Positions 4,183-10,685 are shown, counted from the first letter of the stretch. The stretch: DNA of 52,319 nucleotides from an uncultured Bacilli bacterium (GCA_944332725.1 CALVKO010000002.1:1-52319); one strand, 5' to 3'. Notes: generated from the sequence alone by a model not told the origin. Program-made: numbers and translations.

Positions 4183-4287
4183 ATTTATCTCCCCTATTTA
4201 TTAATATACGACAAAAATTAACAATTTCCTTTTTTTTTACATATTTTTTTTAAATTTTTTCATATTATTTAATAAGGAGTGAACAAA

Positions 4288-4818
4288 ATGAGTTTAAAAA
4301 CAATTAAGATTATTGGATTTTTTGCTATTTTTCTATTATGTTTTTTATTTCATTTTTTATATGATTGGTTTCCTAATTCTTTATTTAGTATATTCTTTCC
4401 GGTTAACGAAAGTATTTGGGAACATATGAAATTAATTTATACATCTTATATATTTTATGGTATATTTGACTACATTTTATTAAGGAAAAATAAAATAAAT
4501 AATTTTTTTATTCAATTATTTTTAATACCAATTATTAGTATAATTTTATATTTAATTATTTTTATTCCCATTTATAAAATGATTGGTGAAAATATGATAA
4601 TAAGTATTGGATTACTCGCAATCATAATAATAATTGAACAAATATTAAGTTATTTTATATTACAATATAAAGAGATAAAATATCAAAATTTTATTGGAAT
4701 AATTGGCATTATATTAGTGTATATTATATTTGGTTATTTAACTTATAATCCAATCGAAAACTATTTATTCTATGATACTGTCAAAGATAAATATGGTATT
4801 AATATATATATAAAATAA
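4288..4818 (+). CDS. Polytopic membrane protein, unknown function
   Basis: About five hydrophobic helices. AAGGAG sits 8 nt before the ATG at 4288 (the ORF-track GTG at 4279 lies inside the RBS). Followed by a terminator. Confidence 0.6.
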   Translation: MSLKTIKIIGFFAIFLLCFLFHFLYDWFPNSLFSIFFPVNESIWEHMKLIYTSYIFYGIFDYILLRKNKINNFFIQLFLIPIISIILYLIIFIPIYKMIGENMIISIGLLAIIIIIEQILSYFILQYKEIKYQNFIGIIGIILVYIIFGYLTYNPIENYLFYDTVKDKYGINIYIK

Positions 4819-4843
4819 AAAGGGCTAAAAACCCTTTTTATTT
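4817..4843 (+). terminator. Rho-independent terminator
   Basis: AAAAAGGG-ctaaaaa-CCCTTTTT followed by a T-rich tail. Confidence 0.75.
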
Positions 4844-4994
4844 GGAATTAATTCCATCTATATTAAACGCTAAATAGCATTAGCGTACCACTATATAACA
4901 AGTATACACTTGTTAATATCTATATTCAGTATATCCATTTATATATTTTTTATTCATTTATAATATATACTTTTTTTTAAAATTGGTGTAGGTT

Positions 4995-5876
4995 TTAAAC
5001 TAATTCATATTCCTTTGATATAATTCTTTTATCACTACAATATTCCATAATAAATTTATTATCTTTTTTACATATAATTATTCCAATTGTTTTATCTTGT
5101 GTTATTTTTTTTATTGTTTTATCGATATAATTCATATATACTTCTATTTGTCCTATATATTCTTTTTTTAGTTCTGTTATTTTTAATTCTACTACTACAT
5201 AACAATTAAATTCGATGTTATATAATAATAAATCTATATAATTATATCTATTTCCTATTTTTATTTTATATTCATTAGCTATATAACTAAAATTATTACC
5301 AAGTTCTAATAAAAAATTATCTATATCTTCTAATATTAATTGTTTTAATATTTTTTCTGATATTTCTTCATAATTATGACTATTTTTAATCAATATAGGA
5401 TTCTTAATCATATCTGTTATTTCAAATTTTTCTTCAACAATTATTTTTAATTTTGTTTTGTTATCTAATCTTTCATATTCTTTGTTTTTTATTTTTTCTC
5501 GTAATTGTCTAACTGATAAATTATTTTGTTCTGTTATCTTAATATAATAATTTATTTGATCATCTTCAAGCCAAATTATTTCACAATAGTGTGAGAACGT
5601 CAATTTATCCGACATTGTCGGACATTTTGAAAAAAATTCATAAAATTTTCTAAAATACCTTAATCTAGTTTGAGTAAAGCCTTTACCAAACTCATTAGTT
5701 AACTTAATAGAATATTCTTTTATTATTCCTTCACCATAATGTTTTCCGGCTTCTTTTAATAATTTTCCTACATTGTAATATGTATCTAAATCACTTTTAT
5801 TTTTACTATAATCTTTTACTTTTTTAGTTATTTCATTATTTATTATTTGTTCTTTTATTTCGTTATAATAATTCAT
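4995..5876 (-). CDS. PD-(D/E)XK nuclease, YhcG/DUF1016-like (intact copy)
   Basis: N-terminus MNYYNEIKEQI...YYNVGKLLKEAGKHYGEGIIKEYS and C-terminal nuclease core YIDLLLYNIEFNCYVVVELK. Start taken at MNYYNE. Confidence 0.75.
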   Translation of the reverse strand: MNYYNEIKEQIINNEITKKVKDYSKNKSDLDTYYNVGKLLKEAGKHYGEGIIKEYSIKLTNEFGKGFTQTRLRYFRKFYEFFSKCPTMSDKLTFSHYCEIIWLEDDQINYYIKITEQNNLSVRQLREKIKNKEYERLDNKTKLKIIVEEKFEITDMIKNPILIKNSHNYEEISEKILKQLILEDIDNFLLELGNNFSYIANEYKIKIGNRYNYIDLLLYNIEFNCYVVVELKITELKKEYIGQIEVYMNYIDKTIKKITQDKTIGIIICKKDNKFIMEYCSDKRIISKEYELV

Positions 5877-5887
5877 AACCACTCCTT

Positions 5888-6454
5888 TTATTGTACACAT
5901 TTTTTAATTTCTATTTCTTTTTTTAGTTTAAATCTAATACTACCATTAATATCAGTTCTGTAAATAATACTATCTTTTAAATTATCCAACACTTCAGTGT
6001 TAGGATGACCATACCAATTATTTTTACCAACTGATATAGCTGAATATTTTGGATTGATTTTGTTTATAAAAACTTCACTACTACTCGTTTTACTTCCGTG
6101 ATGCCCAACTTTTAGTATATCTATGTTACTTAAATTATAATTATTTAATATATTCTTTTCTACCTCTATTCCAGCATCACCCATTAATAGTGATTTAATA
6201 CCATTTATTTTGAAATAAATTACACTTGAATTATCGTTTTCATTAGTATATAAGGAATTATTTAAAAAATATAATTTGTTATTATATATATTTAATTGTT
6301 TTAAGCCTTTAAAATAATTAATGTTTTTAAATTCTAATACTTCAATTAAACTAAGTTCTAAATCATTATAATTGTTATGATTAAATATAACATTATCTAT
6401 TTTAAAATCATTAATTAAATTAATACTTTCACCCATATGATCATAATCACCATG
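5888..6454 (-). pseudogene. Detached 3' fragment of comEC (metallo-beta-lactamase domain only)
   Basis: About 60% aa identity to the C-terminus of the full comEC (GDAG..E..., VGHHGSKTSS, YGHPN, YRTD.NGS). A 21-nt identical run at 6434-6454 equals 8615-8635, after which the similarity stops. No 5' part of the gene is present. Confidence 0.8.
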
Positions 6455-6551
6455 TGGTGATTGTCAAAAAGTAAGTCGAATCAATATAATATATCAATTA
6501 TGAAGTAAATGTTATAATAATGATATCTAATTATAAGGAGGTGATTTTGTA

Positions 6552-7121
6552 ATGTATTTATTAATAATGCTAATACCAATATTAATAATATATCCGTTTT
6601 TCATTTCTAAATATATAGATAAACATACAATAACTAAAGAACCAAGCATAAAGCAAATAACAAAAAATATGGGCCTAATATCCTTGATATCTATAATATC
6701 TATAATTGTCATTAGTTATTTATTGAATATATATTATAGTTTAATACCAAGTTCAACTTCTAGCTTATGTACAAACACTGGTGGTTGGACCTATTCTTGC
6801 CAAGGAGACACACATACCGCCCCAATATTGCTAGCTGCAATAGGCCTAGTAATAATTACTTATCATTTTCTTTCACAAAAATTCGTATATAAAATCTTTG
6901 AATATAGTAAGGGAGTTTTTAAATACATTTATATGTATATCCATATGTTTATTATATATTTCTTAAATTTTTGGCTTTTATTGTACTTATATGGTTTATT
7001 TATTTCAGTACACTATGACTCAGTACTAATTGAACTATTAAGATTTTTCGTATTTATTTCTCCAACTTGCCTCTTTATTATTTCAACATTAATATATGTG
7101 CATAAAAACAAGAACAACTAA
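6552..7121 (+). CDS. Polytopic membrane protein, unknown function
   Basis: AGGAGGTG RBS, several hydrophobic helices, and a Cys-containing loop CTNTGGWTYSCQGDTH. Ends inside a terminator hairpin. Confidence 0.55.
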   Translation: MYLLIMLIPILIIYPFFISKYIDKHTITKEPSIKQITKNMGLISLISIISIIVISYLLNIYYSLIPSSTSSLCTNTGGWTYSCQGDTHTAPILLAAIGLVIITYHFLSQKFVYKIFEYSKGVFKYIYMYIHMFIIYFLNFWLLLYLYGLFISVHYDSVLIELLRFFVFISPTCLFIISTLIYVHKNKNN

Positions 7122-7135
7122 TTCTTGTTTTTTTT
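7106..7135. terminator. Bidirectional hairpin terminator
   Basis: AAACAAGAA-caactaa-TTCTTGTTT followed by a T-run. Lies between the convergent genes 6552-7121 (+) and 7134-8023 (-). Confidence 0.7.
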
Positions 7136-8023
7136 ACACTAATTCATATTCTCTAACTGCAATTCTTTCATCTGAACAATATTCTATTACAAACTTGTTT
7201 TCTCTTTTACATATCAAGATTCCCATTGTATTGTTATTACTTACTTGTTTGATATTCTTATCAATATAATTCATATACTTCTGAACTTGTGAAATATATT
7301 CTACTTTAAACTCAGTTACTTTTAGTCAACAGCGACATAGCAATTGTATTTTATATTAAATAATAACAAATCAATATAATGGTTTCTATCACCTATTTTA
7401 ATTTTGTATTCACTACCAATAAAACTATATGAATCACCAAGTTCTTTCATAAATGATTCAATATCTTCCAAAATCAACTTTTGTAAAACCTTCTCAGATA
7501 TAATTTCATAATTATTACTATTTTTAATTATTATTGGATTAGGTACTAAATCTTTTATTTCGATTTTATCTTGGATTTTAAGTTTGGTTTTAGTATCTTC
7601 TGGCAGTCTTTCATATTCTTTAGCTTTTATTTTCTCTTGTAATTGTCTTTGAGTTAGATTATTATTTTTAGATATATTTATATAATATAGTATTTCATCA
7701 TAATCATCTAATGGTAATAAAAGTAAATAATGTGACCAAGTTAATTGTGTCAACATTGTTGTCACTTTTTTATTACTAAATACACTATAGAATTGCTTCA
7801 TCCTAAATAAAGTTCTTCTATTATATTGTTTACCTACTTCAATAACTAATTTTTTAGAATATTCATCTATAATATTATCCCCATATTTGCCACCAGCTTC
7901 ATTTAATAATTTACCTATCTCAAAATATGTGATTCCTTTCTGTCTTTCTTTTGAATAATCTTTTACTCTTGAATATATTTCGTTATCTATTAATCTATTC
8001 TTTATCTCATTATAATAATTCAT
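7134..8023 (-). pseudogene. YhcG/DUF1016-like PD-(D/E)XK nuclease, frameshifted copy
   Basis: The ORF stops at ...NCYVAVD* (7322). The homologous C-terminus LKVTEFKVEYISQVQKYMNYIDK...EYCSDERIAVREYELV continues in another frame to the stop at 7134. Consistent with a 1-nt deletion near 7325. Confidence 0.75.
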
Positions 8024-8065
8024 ATTTACTCCTTTCATAATTATGTCGCCAGTGGTGACACTTTT

Positions 8066-10051
8066 CTATGGACTACAAGTCTCAATCTTTAATTTATTAT
8101 TTTTAATCTTAAACATAACACTTCCATTCTGGTCTGTTCTATATATTTTTGAATCACTTAAATTATTTAATACTTCCTTATTTGGATGACCATATCTATT
8201 ATTCTTACCAACACTAATAATAGAGTATTTTGGATTTATTTCATTAATAAATTCTTTACCACTACTTGTCTTACTTCCATGATGACCTACTTTTAATACA
8301 TCTATATCTTGTAAATTATATTTTTCAATCAAGTCTTCTTCTACACCTACTCCAGCATCTCCCATAAATAGAAACTTGTGATTATTTAATTTAGTATAAA
8401 TAACTGATGAATTATCATTCTCATTACCATAATCTTTATTATTTAAAGAGTATAGTTTGTTATTATCAACATTTAATTCTTTAACACAAGAATAATATGG
8501 TATCTTCTTTTTATCCAATACTTTTATTAGTTCTTGTTCTAGTTCATTAAACTCACCACAATTAAATATTACTTTTTCTACTTTAAAGTTTTCTACTAAA
8601 TTAATTGCTTCACCCATATGATCATAATCACCATGAGTTAAAATTAAATAATTTATTTTTTTAATACCTAATGATTTAAAATATGGAATTAATTTATTTT
8701 TAGCCATATTATAATCGCTAAACATATCCCCTCCAGTATCAATTAAAATAGATTTATCTTTAATTTCTAATAAAATAGAATCACCTTGTCTAACATCAAT
8801 CATAGTTAAATAACTATTTTGATTAAAATATTTTATATTATTATGTAATATTAATATTATTATTAAAATATAAAAATACTTAGGTTTAACAAATATTAAG
8901 GTAATAATTAAATAATAAAATATAAATACCAAATAATTCATCTTAGCCATTATTAAATTAATATTAAATTGATTACAAAATAAAGTTAAAGATTCCATTA
9001 TACCAGTTAAGAAATATAATAAATTATCTAATATAGGAAATATTAAAGTTAATAAAGATAAAGGAAAAATAATTAAAGATATCAAAGGAACAAATATTAA
9101 ATTAATAAAAGGACTAATTATATTTATATAATAAAAGTTATTAATCATAATTGGAATACTTGCTACAAAACAAATAGTAGAAGTAATAAATAATTTAACA
9201 AAATAATTATTAAATTTATTACTTAATTTACCAAAATAAATCAAATAAAAACTTATTACAAAACTAAATAAAAATCCCACATTATAAATGTAATAAGGAT
9301 TATAAAATAACATAAAACTAGCAATTAATAAAATTAAATATTTCTTATCTATTTTATTAAAAACATAAAGAAATACTGCCCTTAAAACCGATGGCGTAAA
9401 ACTAGTTAAAAAAGCATAAAATATTAAAAAAACACTTATTATAAAATAACTATATTTAAATTTTTTTAACATTTTTGATAATATAACTGTTAATAAAGAA
9501 ATATGCATACCCGATATAGCCAGTAAATGACTAACCCCATTTTCTTGATAACTACTTAATATTTCATCATTTAAATCTTGTTTATCGCCCAAAACAAATG
9601 TTTTAACATATTCTTTACTTTTCAAATTATTTATTTTTTCATATATTTTATTTTTTATTTCATACAATATATTTTTATTATCCTTTACTTTTTCAATCTT
9701 ATCAGCATATAAAATAAAATATATTTTATTACTTAATAAATATTTACGATAATTAAATAAATTAAAAACCGTATTATCATAAGGAATATTTAAAGTACCA
9801 CTTATTTTTACATAATCTCCTAATTCGTAATTTAAATTACCATAATATGATACTTTTATTTTTTCTTTGGCTTTAACTATTAAATCAGTTTTATTATCAC
9901 TATAAGTTATATTAATTATTTTACCAATTAATGTTATATCTCCCTCATTATAATTAGTTTTATAAATTAAACTATTAGTAATTAAAAAAGTATATGAAAT
10001 AGCAATAATTAAAATTATTTTAGATAGTAAGTCGATCTTTAATTTTTTCAT
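8066..10051 (-). CDS. comEC: DNA internalization competence protein ComEC/Rec2
   Basis: N-terminal OB-like region, a polytopic competence domain, and a C-terminal metallo-beta-lactamase domain (ILTHGDYDHMGE, VGHHGSKTSS). Confidence 0.9.
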   Translation of the reverse strand: MKKLKIDLLSKIILIIAISYTFLITNSLIYKTNYNEGDITLIGKIINITYSDNKTDLIVKAKEKIKVSYYGNLNYELGDYVKISGTLNIPYDNTVFNLFNYRKYLLSNKIYFILYADKIEKVKDNKNILYEIKNKIYEKINNLKSKEYVKTFVLGDKQDLNDEILSSYQENGVSHLLAISGMHISLLTVILSKMLKKFKYSYFIISVFLIFYAFLTSFTPSVLRAVFLYVFNKIDKKYLILLIASFMLFYNPYYIYNVGFLFSFVISFYLIYFGKLSNKFNNYFVKLFITSTICFVASIPIMINNFYYINIISPFINLIFVPLISLIIFPLSLLTLIFPILDNLLYFLTGIMESLTLFCNQFNINLIMAKMNYLVFIFYYLIITLIFVKPKYFYILIIILILHNNIKYFNQNSYLTMIDVRQGDSILLEIKDKSILIDTGGDMFSDYNMAKNKLIPYFKSLGIKKINYLILTHGDYDHMGEAINLVENFKVEKVIFNCGEFNELEQELIKVLDKKKIPYYSCVKELNVDNNKLYSLNNKDYGNENDNSSVIYTKLNNHKFLFMGDAGVGVEEDLIEKYNLQDIDVLKVGHHGSKTSSGKEFINEINPKYSIISVGKNNRYGHPNKEVLNNLSDSKIYRTDQNGSVMFKIKNNKLKIETCSP

Positions 10052-10685
10052 AAGTTGCGGTACCTATTCCATCTACTTCTAATATTTCTTCAATTGATTT
10101 AAAACTATGTTTTTTTCGATATTCAATTATTGCTTGAGCCTTTTTTTCACCAATACCATCTAATGTCATCAATTCATCTAAACTAGCATTATTTAAAGAT
10201 ATCTTGCCATTTGTTGAACTAGAATTATTATCTAAAACATTATCGATACTATTTTCAATACAAGCATCATTTTCTAATTTTGGACAAATACATTCTTTTT
10301 CAATATATTTTATACTTGTGCTTCCTTTTTTCATTTCTTCAATTTCATCTTTAGTATAAATAATAATAACCATTTCATCAATAACATTTTTACTTAAATT
10401 AATTACACTAGTATCAGCTTCATTCGTTAATCCACCACTTATATCAATTACATCACTAACTCGACTATTTTCTTCTACTTCATATACTCCAGGATTTTTT
10501 ACAGCACCTTTAATATCAACCTTAACTATTTCTGAAACTATTTTTTCTTCTTCTAAAATGTTTTCTTCAGTTTTAATTATTTCTTCTTCTAATTGAATCT
10601 CTTCACTATCTTTGTTAAAAATTATAAATACAATTACTAATAGAACAATTATAATTATCCATATGTATTTTTTTAAATAAAACAT
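10020..10685 (-). CDS. comEA: Competence protein ComEA (DNA receptor)
   Basis: N-terminal TM helix, SLBB-like VDIKGAVKNPGVYEV, and tandem C-terminal helix-hairpin-helix LDELMTLDGIGEKKAQAIIEYR...ILEVDGIGTATYEKIK. Confidence 0.85.
   Translation of the reverse strand: MFYLKKYIWIIIIVLLVIVFIIFNKDSEEIQLEEEIIKTEENILEEEKIVSEIVKVDIKGAVKNPGVYEVEENSRVSDVIDISGGLTNEADTSVINLSKNVIDEMVIIIYTKDEIEEMKKGSTSIKYIEKECICPKLENDACIENSIDNVLDNNSSSTNGKISLNNASLDELMTLDGIGEKKAQAIIEYRKKHSFKSIEEILEVDGIGTATYEKIKDRLTI

Follow-up and report, generated by a model that had tools for sequence, protein, structure and literature searches.

Genomic islands of Dehalococcoides accrete in tandem at ssrA, the target of a serine recombinase (PMC3146451), and staphylococcal cassette chromosome (SCC) elements form composite islands at rlmH, among them ccr-less pseudo-SCC elements (10.1101/336396, PMC12648241). 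Cis-mobilizable elements (CIMEs), and the accretion and cis-mobilization of ICEs (integrative and conjugative elements) and IMEs (integrative and mobilizable elements), have been reviewed (PMC5704250), and the pairing rules of serine integrases are known to be strict (PMC3783163). In streptococci, the competence gene comEC hosts the serine-recombinase elements phi1207.3/Tn1207.3, phi10394.4 and Tn1207.1, which insert at a GA dinucleotide (PMC4260502), and disruption of competence genes has been suggested to let mobile elements escape chromosomal curing (PMC12637031). Here we analyze the comEC locus in a 52,319-nt stretch of DNA from an uncultured Bacilli bacterium (hereafter the window; G+C ~23%, strongly A+T-rich), where an intact comEC is followed by a second, headless copy of its 3′ end, and where the junction between the two appears to be a phage attachment (att) site. 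We found no paper tying comEC to DUF1016, the nuclease family encoded behind both copies, or describing arrays of comEC 3′ ends.

For comparison, we scanned species-representative genomes for ComEC and obtained 80 loci (L001-L080), whose hosts are uncultured gut Bacilli or Mycoplasmatota, e.g. Candidatus Faecisoma. Phage contigs were drawn from IMG/VR. A separate census of comEC 3′ ends, anchored inside the C-terminal coding region and independent of the junction, yielded 198 distinct ends.

A repeated comEC end behind a predicted phage attachment site

The features that bear on the origin of the locus are as follows, where assignments as attachment site, resident or foreign are predictions from the comparisons given below:

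8066-10051, minus strand: comEC, predicted chimera of 661 aa, with the resident 5′ part (8636-10051) fused in frame to the foreign 3′ part (8066-8635)
8066-8635, minus strand: putative foreign comEC 3′ end, 190 codons, from the HGDYDH motif to the stop
8609-8635, minus strand: core in the expressed gene, attB-type, CATGGTGATTATGATCATATGGGTGAA; common CATGG at 8631-8635; exact 27-nt repeat of 6428-6454
6455-8635, minus strand: putative acquired module, 2,181 bp, comprising the comEC 3′ end, a DUF1016 gene, a membrane-protein gene and the P half-site, without a recombinase
7134-8038, minus strand: module-borne DUF1016/YhcG gene, with DUF1016_N and a truncated YhcG_C (Pfam); one missing A between 7326 and 7325
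6552-7121, plus strand: open reading frame (ORF) of 189 aa, candidate membrane-protein gene, module cargo
6428-6481, minus strand: attR-type junction, consisting of the P half-site, the common CATGG and then the comEC B′ half-site
6455-6481, minus strand: P half-site of a phage attP, ATTCGACTTACTTTTTGACAATCACCA, exact, once in the window
5888-6454, minus strand: putative displaced resident comEC 3′ end, headless, with the frame still open (ORF 5888-6436, comEC-like reading from 6454)
4995-5900, minus strand: putative resident DUF1016/YhcG gene, intact (Pfam DUF1016_N E 2e-24, YhcG_C E 6e-37)

Our analysis suggests that 6428-6481 is very probably the attR of temperate phages that target comEC, and that 6455-8635 is an integrase-less module lying between two crossover sites, whose arrival displaced the resident comEC end.

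A reading of the window made from sequence alone had proposed that the comEC 3′ end and the DUF1016 gene recur in the same order and orientation. Comparing 4800-6700 with 6900-8900 by blastn bears this out with a single collinear match (4993-6454 = 7132-8635; 69.0% nucleotide identity over 1,525 columns, E 2.75e-162). As that reading had also held, similarity halts at 6454/8635, and the alignment goes no further. The identical run at its end is 27 nt rather than the 21 nt first given (6428-6454 = 8609-8635, minus strand CATGGTGATTATGATCATATGGGTGAA), and encodes HGDYDHMGE; beyond it, the copies continue into the proximal-specific GCAATTAATTTAGTAGAAAAC (8608 downward) and the distal-specific AGTATTAATTTAATT (6427 downward). 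Amino acid identity, initially estimated at 55-60%, is 57.8% for the DUF1016 proteins (over 301 aa, with the proximal frameshift repaired first) and 65.7% for the comEC C-terminal parts (over 175 aa). ORF reading and the presence of both Pfam domains agree with the description of the distal comEC as headless and the distal DUF1016 gene as intact, and the 189-aa ORF at 6552-7121 is the plus-strand membrane-protein gene said to separate the copies. The headless fragment retains 189 codons without a stop, which has a chance probability of ~4e-10 at the window base composition. We also considered the membrane-protein genes at 6552-7121 and 4279-4818 as a third member of the repeat; BLASTP finds no similarity between them.

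Directly upstream of the headless copy, the 27 nt at 6455-6481 on the minus strand are identical at 27/27 positions to the P half-site of the attP in the phage contig L082/L088, with one exact match in the window and none expected by chance. This attP is an imperfect palindrome of ~50 bp, ATTCGACTTACTTTTTGACAATCACCA-CATGG-AGGTATGTGGTTAGTAAGTCGAAT (outer arms ATTCGACTTACT / AGTAAGTCGAAT), of which the half-site forms one arm. It starts ~6 nt past the stop codon of a gene for a 473-aa large serine recombinase (L082:3540-4961; Resolvase PF00239, Recombinase PF07508, Zn_ribbon_recom PF13408), and genes for a CI-like repressor and an Erf-like annealing protein lie on the same contig.

Relatives of this integrase, 65-100% identical, are found in free, attL and attR states. 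A free attP is present in L088-L092. An attL is present in L083-L087: in the four genome loci L083-L086, the integrase gene and P′ half-site abut the comEC 5′ part, which ends at about residue 470, and L087 is a matching attL at the end of a viral contig. The attR locus, L245, lies on the same contig as L083 (CAKOKU010000003.1) and carries the P half-site followed by the comEC 3′ part, with tail genes, a reverse transcriptase gene and an endolysin gene upstream of the half-site. Comparison of these states indicates that phages of this family use their serine integrase to enter comEC at the HGDYDH codons. The four site types attP, attB, attL and attR have only CATGG in common, and in each of two phage types the attP palindrome is centered on the CA of CATGG, from which we infer CA to be the crossover dinucleotide. 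Because the half-site in the window equals a phage attP arm, and because related prophages lie in comEC at those codons, we assign 6428-6481 as an attR junction; that the junction originated as an attachment site is predicted with high confidence.

Several further observations concern these sites. Two contigs end exactly at the core, one from a genome (L017, at ComEC residue 472) and one viral (L081, ...CACCACATGG), as would happen if the sampled populations contain both integrated and empty forms and the assembly breaks there. The reverse transcriptase of the L245 prophage (L245:4004-5062; phrog_1423, E 1e-112) is encoded between tail-protein and tail-fiber-assembly genes, a region that looks like a diversity-generating retroelement. 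A tRNA-like or structured reading of the conserved 27-mer was dropped upon its match to phage attP. In a sigma-70-like scan of 4800-8800, the total count equals the shuffled expectation, and the two best matches both overlap the P half-site: TTGACA-16-TATGAT (minus strand, 6467-6440) points into the headless copy and resident DUF1016 gene and exists in the attR form only, not in attP, and TTGTCA-18-TATAAT (plus strand, 6461-6490) points into the membrane-protein gene. We treat these possible promoters as leads only.

Resident and foreign comEC ends

The nearest relative, L013 (ComEC N-terminus 91% and DnaG 96.5% identical to those of the window), lacks the insert, and its expressed comEC 3′ end and DUF1016 gene align with window positions 6456-4994 at 90.4% nucleotide identity. 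Empty sites are also present in L004, L006 and L007. The comparison of this locus across relatives that the sequence-only reading called for thus recovers the empty configuration, and a two-copy arrangement shared by all relatives, which that reading had named as evidence of vertical inheritance, is not what we find, as the closest relatives are empty.

Amino acid identities separate the two copies in the same way. The distal comEC end is 73-83% identical to the expressed ends of L004-L007 and L013 (77-83% when L007 is set aside), and 77-82% to the terminal headless copies of L001-L003; the distal DUF1016 is 94% identical to the first of two tandem DUF1016 proteins in L013. The proximal comEC end is 85-91% identical to the ends in genomes that match the window at only 35-45% over the N-terminal 470 residues, and only 62-70% identical to those of the empty-site relatives L004, L006, L007 and L013. 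Across 65 distant loci (N-terminal 470 aa median 41%), the expressed end is a median of 78.5% identical to the window's proximal end (maximum 90.6%) and ~63% identical to its distal end; across the 15 close loci (N-terminal median 81%), the median for the proximal end is 66%. Identity to the window is therefore incongruent between the N- and C-terminal parts of ComEC. Given the empty sites and these incongruent identities, we assign the distal copy as the resident comEC tail and the proximal copy as foreign.

An insertion into comEC of foreign DNA that carried its own comEC 3′ end had been proposed at the outset, and the empty sites, the incongruent identities and the module copy in L224 (below) support it. 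Two routes had been offered: an element that targets comEC site-specifically fits these data, and homology-facilitated integration does not explain a junction built from a phage half-site.

In L013:11971-13768, L005:11972-13774 and L009:11957-14243, two to three tandem DUF1016 genes lie right after comEC with no comEC fragment between them, so DUF1016 probably multiplies by another route too.

Transfer of modules between species

L224 belongs to a different species (ComEC N-terminus 40% and ComEA 45% identical at the amino acid level), and it carries the window's module: the comEC C-terminus is 92% identical, DUF1016 82% and the membrane protein 100%. Nucleotide identity reaches 99.5-100% over 8399-8200 and 7400-6602, and ranges from 71% to 95% in the other 200-nt windows of the module. 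Outside the module, it is 60-65% for the comEC 5′ half and ~75% for the headless copy, and at the right edge it falls from 100% to ~75% immediately after the P half-site and CATGG. Other pairs of modules, from different species, show 97-100% identity in the 400 nt that precede their P half-sites. Such identities between otherwise divergent genomes indicate that modules move between species.

At the frameshift in the window's proximal DUF1016 gene, the L224 copy, which is intact, reads GTTGAACTAAAAG and the window GTTGACTAAAAG; the missing A may be either a real frameshift or a sequencing error. We also considered L065 as the native chromosomal home of the membrane-protein gene. That stretch (L065:12822-14060) is really a decayed module copy, with a DUF1016 end, the terminator, the membrane-protein gene at ~87% nucleotide identity and a degenerate P half-site, and it lies directly before DUF6512 and dnaG with no terminal headless comEC after it.

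Module arrays across the clade

The window appears to be one instance of a clade-wide pattern, not a single-genome oddity. At 35 of the 80 loci, at least two comEC C-terminal matches lie downstream of comEC (seven in L050), and arrays contain up to at least six headless copies. Among the 198 distinct comEC ends, 110 have native upstream sequence (13-21 mismatches to the P half-site), and the 88 others are headless, each preceded by a P half-site (0-10 mismatches). The two groups are almost cleanly split, with only four ends at 10 or 11 mismatches. Headless copies start at the His codon of HGDYDH, and the ~28 nt upstream are conserved across distant genomes in two types, AAATTCGACTTACTTTTTGACAATCACCA (type 1) and AAATTCGTATGCATAAACGTATGTCACCA (type 2), with conservation setting in sharply at about -28 relative to the core. 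The type-1 half-site is present in two IMG/VR phage contigs. A search for the inner P half-site joined to the comEC core gave 84 matching stretches among the species-representative genomes, none of them outside this clade. In viral contigs, neither this exact attR-type pattern nor the exact type-2 P half-site pattern had any match; half-sites related to type 2 were reached via integrase relatives. We asked whether the P half-site is more conserved than the adjacent core and found no difference, retained headless cores being as well kept as native ones.

The 63 distinct modules between successive cores measure 1,048-3,946 bp (median 2,089). Their cargo is varied and nearly always co-oriented with comEC. 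Behind 181 comEC ends, the next gene encodes DUF1016 in 45% of cases and a Bro-N/DinD-like protein in 24%; these match the PADLOC candidate defense families PDC-S02 and PDC-S13, respectively. The cargo census found no recombinase belonging to any module. As in accretion arrays, the modules are thus bounded by direct repeats of the target and devoid of recombination genes. The lone transposase-like gene within modules belongs to an insertion sequence (L040:14458-17226), with 419-aa transposase-like and 273-aa ATPase-like ORFs on the opposite strand. When cargo genes were considered as phage morons, module ORFs had no matches among the phage loci collected.

The L002 array is that of L001 with one more module added on the comEC-proximal side: the module that stands first in L001 stands second in L002, and the two loci match from the core onward. 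This comparison, together with the terminal position of the resident-type end in the window and in L001-L003, shows that new modules enter next to the intact comEC and that older ones lie farther off.

The type-2 half-site provides in-frame ATGs, such that headless copies read MHKRMSP-HGDYDH... and are called as ORFs (L195:4962-5429; also L028, L032, L058 and L079). L195 further encodes, directly upstream of a comEC remnant, another large serine recombinase (439 aa up to the locus edge) and a 194-aa gene (L195:27-2899). This remnant begins at the start of the metallo-beta-lactamase domain (MIDVDQGDS..., ~residue 416 of the window ComEC), and a second comEC site in the clade seems to be targeted by another element.

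A possible route of capture and accretion

In the mechanism that we propose, crossover would occur inside CATGG, where the metal-binding motif HGDYDH has its His-Gly codons. Arrival of the module would have rebuilt an intact, chimeric comEC and shifted the resident comEC 3′ end and DUF1016 gene downstream, where they would form the headless second copy. For the specific route, we suggest site-specific accretion combined with cis-mobilization, a model that we consider nearly as likely to hold as to fail. First, a comEC-specific phage would integrate at the attB of a donor already holding the module. Second, it would excise through attL and the farther attR, capturing the module. Third, it would integrate into a new host through attP and attB. 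Fourth, it would exit through attL and the nearer attR, leaving the module before the old 3′ end and comEC intact with the module's 3′ end. Repetition of this cycle could produce arrays like those in relatives. All four steps use att pairings permitted for serine integrases (PMC3783163).

Two metagenome contigs, L257 and L259, contain a module followed by a complete attP, and are possible intermediates. L259 reads comEC, DUF1016, a small gene, a full attP (P-CA-P′), 1.8 kb without an integrase gene, a decayed attR and a headless remnant. Recombination between attL and a foreign attR would give this arrangement, as would Campbell-type homologous integration of a module-bearing phage. Within L259:5590-7460, P-CA-P′ is followed by an esterase gene, a degenerate P-P′, a gene for an XRE-type membrane protein, a degenerate P-B′ and the headless remnant; modules that, as here, start with a P′ half-site look like integrase-less mini-elements with a normal attP.

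Several points weigh against this account. An arrangement of the L259 type is not a product of the simple cycle with alternative attR sites. In IMG/VR, we found no phage contig with a module beside its attP, and the capture step is unobserved. A single-sequence scan for phage contigs bearing a comEC 3′ end or attR-type junction found none. A profile of the comEC C-terminal part matched 189 IMG/VR contigs (L093-L172 among them) at 29-49% identity, mostly full genes for comEC or metallo-beta-lactamase-fold proteins; one or two at most are possibly headless and none come from this clade. One of these contigs, L096, has a possible headless end at its edge and comes from an unrelated host. By tblastn, neither an integrase homologue nor a P′ half-site is present in the 52-kb window or in L001-L080, and as the window has no integrase homologue, its module is non-autonomous. 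The left edge of the module is not sharp, as the window and L224 differ in the first ~30 nt past the core, and their match across DUF1016 is a mosaic (71-88%); this fuzzy edge and mosaic structure suggest that homologous recombination has also shaped the module. In addition, the relatives compared are metagenome-assembled genomes throughout, and the origin of the first module is not accounted for.

A more speculative extension, which we think rather unlikely to hold in full, is that comEC is a site of att-driven gene capture. Tiny integrase-less modules, each with a substitute for half of the ComEC nuclease domain and with cargo, often candidate anti-phage genes, would parasitize the att sites of serine-integrase phages that target comEC; acting through attL, they would repair comEC and strand the prophage between attP and attR, so serving at once as a counter-measure in the conflict between phage and competence and as a vehicle of cross-species domain exchange. 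L259 exhibits the stranding arrangement, between attP and attR.

Alternative explanations

One alternative, possible in our view though improbable, keeps the attachment-site origin and has the module moved by homologous recombination: transducing or circular DNA with the order P half-site, core, comEC 3′ end and cargo would enter by a Campbell-style single crossover in the core or 3′ region. The two cores in the window are identical over 27 nt, with module-type sequence in the proximal copy only after that run, and the fuzzy left edge and mosaic DUF1016 relative to L224 would follow naturally; L259 and L257, with a module and then a full attP, are the expected outcome for a module-bearing phage. 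The usable homology between distant hosts, however, is limited to the short core and a 60-80% identical 3′ end, and a crossover at any other point of the 570-bp repeat would leave hybrid copies, whereas the right edge lies exactly behind CATGG. The 27-nt identity is itself weak evidence: the motif is invariant, the run is its synonymous form preferred at high A+T, and L002 has the same 27-mer in its expressed core.

Whatever their origin, headless copies could now act as silent cassettes that switch the ComEC C-terminal half by gene conversion, in the manner of pilE/pilS. Within the first 80 loci, 17 of 56 headless copies run to full length without a stop or frameshift, headless cores are preserved as well as those of expressed genes, and mosaic modules show that recombination occurs; moreover, type-1 junctions form TTGACA-16-TATGAT and type-2 junctions give an in-frame ATG. 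Most headless copies are nevertheless truncated or broken, no switching was seen within populations, and the open frames may merely reflect recent displacement. We regard such a role as improbable.

Homology-facilitated illegitimate recombination during natural transformation, with no site-specific recombinase, is highly improbable. The organism may be transformable, as comEC and comEA are intact, and the 27-nt identical run could anchor such an event, but the junction does not look random: it matches a phage attP half-site at 27/27 positions, and 88/88 headless copies carry such a half-site at the same position. An integron was likewise rejected, as no tyrosine recombinase or attC-like sites were seen and the boundaries are serine-integrase half-sites.

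An old tandem duplication, inherited vertically and diverged in place, has next to no probability. Although the shared order and orientation and the ~2.18-kb unit would suit a tandem repeat, the insert is absent from the closest relatives, the two membrane-protein genes have no relation to each other, the copies sort with different genomes (the proximal one with distant, the distal one with close genomes), L224 has the module at up to 100% identity, and a pseudogene would not hold 189 codons open at 66% identity. An assembly artifact joining two strain variants of the comEC end is equally remote: most comparison genomes are metagenome bins and some contigs break exactly at the core (L017, L081), but the architecture with its element-specific half-site recurs in 84 stretches from assemblies of many studies, and the window's own module is reproduced in L224.

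Genes of the surrounding locus

In minus-strand order, the locus reads comEA, comEC, DUF1016/YhcG, the membrane-protein gene (plus strand), headless comEC, DUF1016, DUF6512 (plus strand), dnaG and rpoD. Relatives share the order comEC-DUF1016-DUF6512(-)-dnaG. The remaining features are:

10020-10685, minus strand: comEA, intact, like comEC
7107-7129, no strand assigned: A+T-rich inverted repeat AACAAGAA / TTCTTGTT, read from the sequence, between the convergent DUF1016 and membrane-protein genes
4279-4818, plus strand: DUF6512 membrane-protein gene (Pfam), conserved right-hand neighbor followed by dnaG, marking the end of the variable region

The expressed comEC is a single open frame with Pfam domains DUF4131 (PF13567), Competence (PF03772) and Lactamase_B (PF00753), and both HGDYDH and GHHG are present. 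With a predicted OB (oligonucleotide/oligosaccharide-binding) fold, membrane domain and metallo-beta-lactamase domain with HxHxDH, the gene at 8066-10051 has the features of ComEC/Rec2. The distal DUF1016 protein has a PD-(D/E)XK nuclease domain and matches PDC-S02 at E 9e-62; its defense role is a candidate annotation. For the 189-aa membrane protein, there was no match in Pfam, PHROG or PADLOC. The inverted repeat at 7107-7129 is likely a two-way terminator; our terminator scan, which requires G+C pairs, did not pick it up.

Implications

Serine-integrase phages of this family target the catalytic motif of comEC, yet most sampled genomes hold a restored gene and displaced ends, such that the arrays naturally record how this one site has been hit and repaired again and again. 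In the window, the last 190 residues of the expressed ComEC would come from a distant lineage, and horizontal transfer gives the C-terminal half of this nuclease domain a history of its own. Such chimeric ends matter for comEC-based phylogeny or function prediction in these organisms. With ~70% of ends directly followed by one of two candidate defense genes, the comEC site may also be a small defense hotspot. Finally, these data supply natural attP/attB pairs for several related serine integrases, and the half-site beside each displaced end offers a simple marker for similar arrays elsewhere.

Comparison with known systems

Like the ssrA and SCC islands, comEC modules are stacked downstream of one target gene, each bounded by a target repeat; large serine recombinases are involved in all of these systems, and some modules lack a recombinase. 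In the ssrA islands of Dehalococcoides, each repeat is also immediately preceded by a conserved motif on the element side, which cannot be aligned with the target gene (PMC3146451), like the P half-site here. Their repeats are ~20 bp. In contrast to both systems, the comEC crossover lies 570 bp inside a protein-coding gene, at its catalytic motif, so each module must carry ~190 replacement codons and the displaced ends are long headless fragments. The comEC modules also swap half of an enzyme domain between species and are very small (median 2.1 kb), and their recombinase is a phage integrase found only in full phages and in none of the sampled arrays. Small integrase-less modules far outnumber intact prophages.

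CIMEs resemble comEC modules in being integrase-less elements that keep their att sites and lie in tandem with autonomous elements, and their co-excision through the outer att sites is possible, leading to gene capture. CIME systems rely on tyrosine integrases and conjugation, whereas the partner here would be a temperate phage with a serine integrase, and co-mobilization is inferred. The streptococcal elements share with this locus the specific targeting of comEC and its interruption upon integration. They leave comEC disrupted, whereas the window's comEC has been restored by a replacement 3′ end, with no prophage left. In the cultured-phage collection, the best match to our integrase is only 36% identical, so it is not close kin of the streptococcal ones.

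In orphan CdiA-CT/CdiI and Rhs-CT systems, a conserved motif precedes the variable C-terminal part, and displaced ends, each with a small gene, pile up behind the main gene. We rejected a toxin-orphan model of this kind for comEC, as the junctions are phage half-sites and no toxin/immunity pair fits. The comEC arrays differ in lacking such pairs and in that the swapped part is the rest of the Lactamase_B (metallo-beta-lactamase) domain, the gene after the comEC end encodes a DUF1016 nuclease or a Bro-N protein, and each junction has a phage att half-site. Tandem accretion at a serine-integrase site is already known from SCC, the ssrA islands and CIMEs; what is new here is comEC modules that carry replacement 3′ ends.

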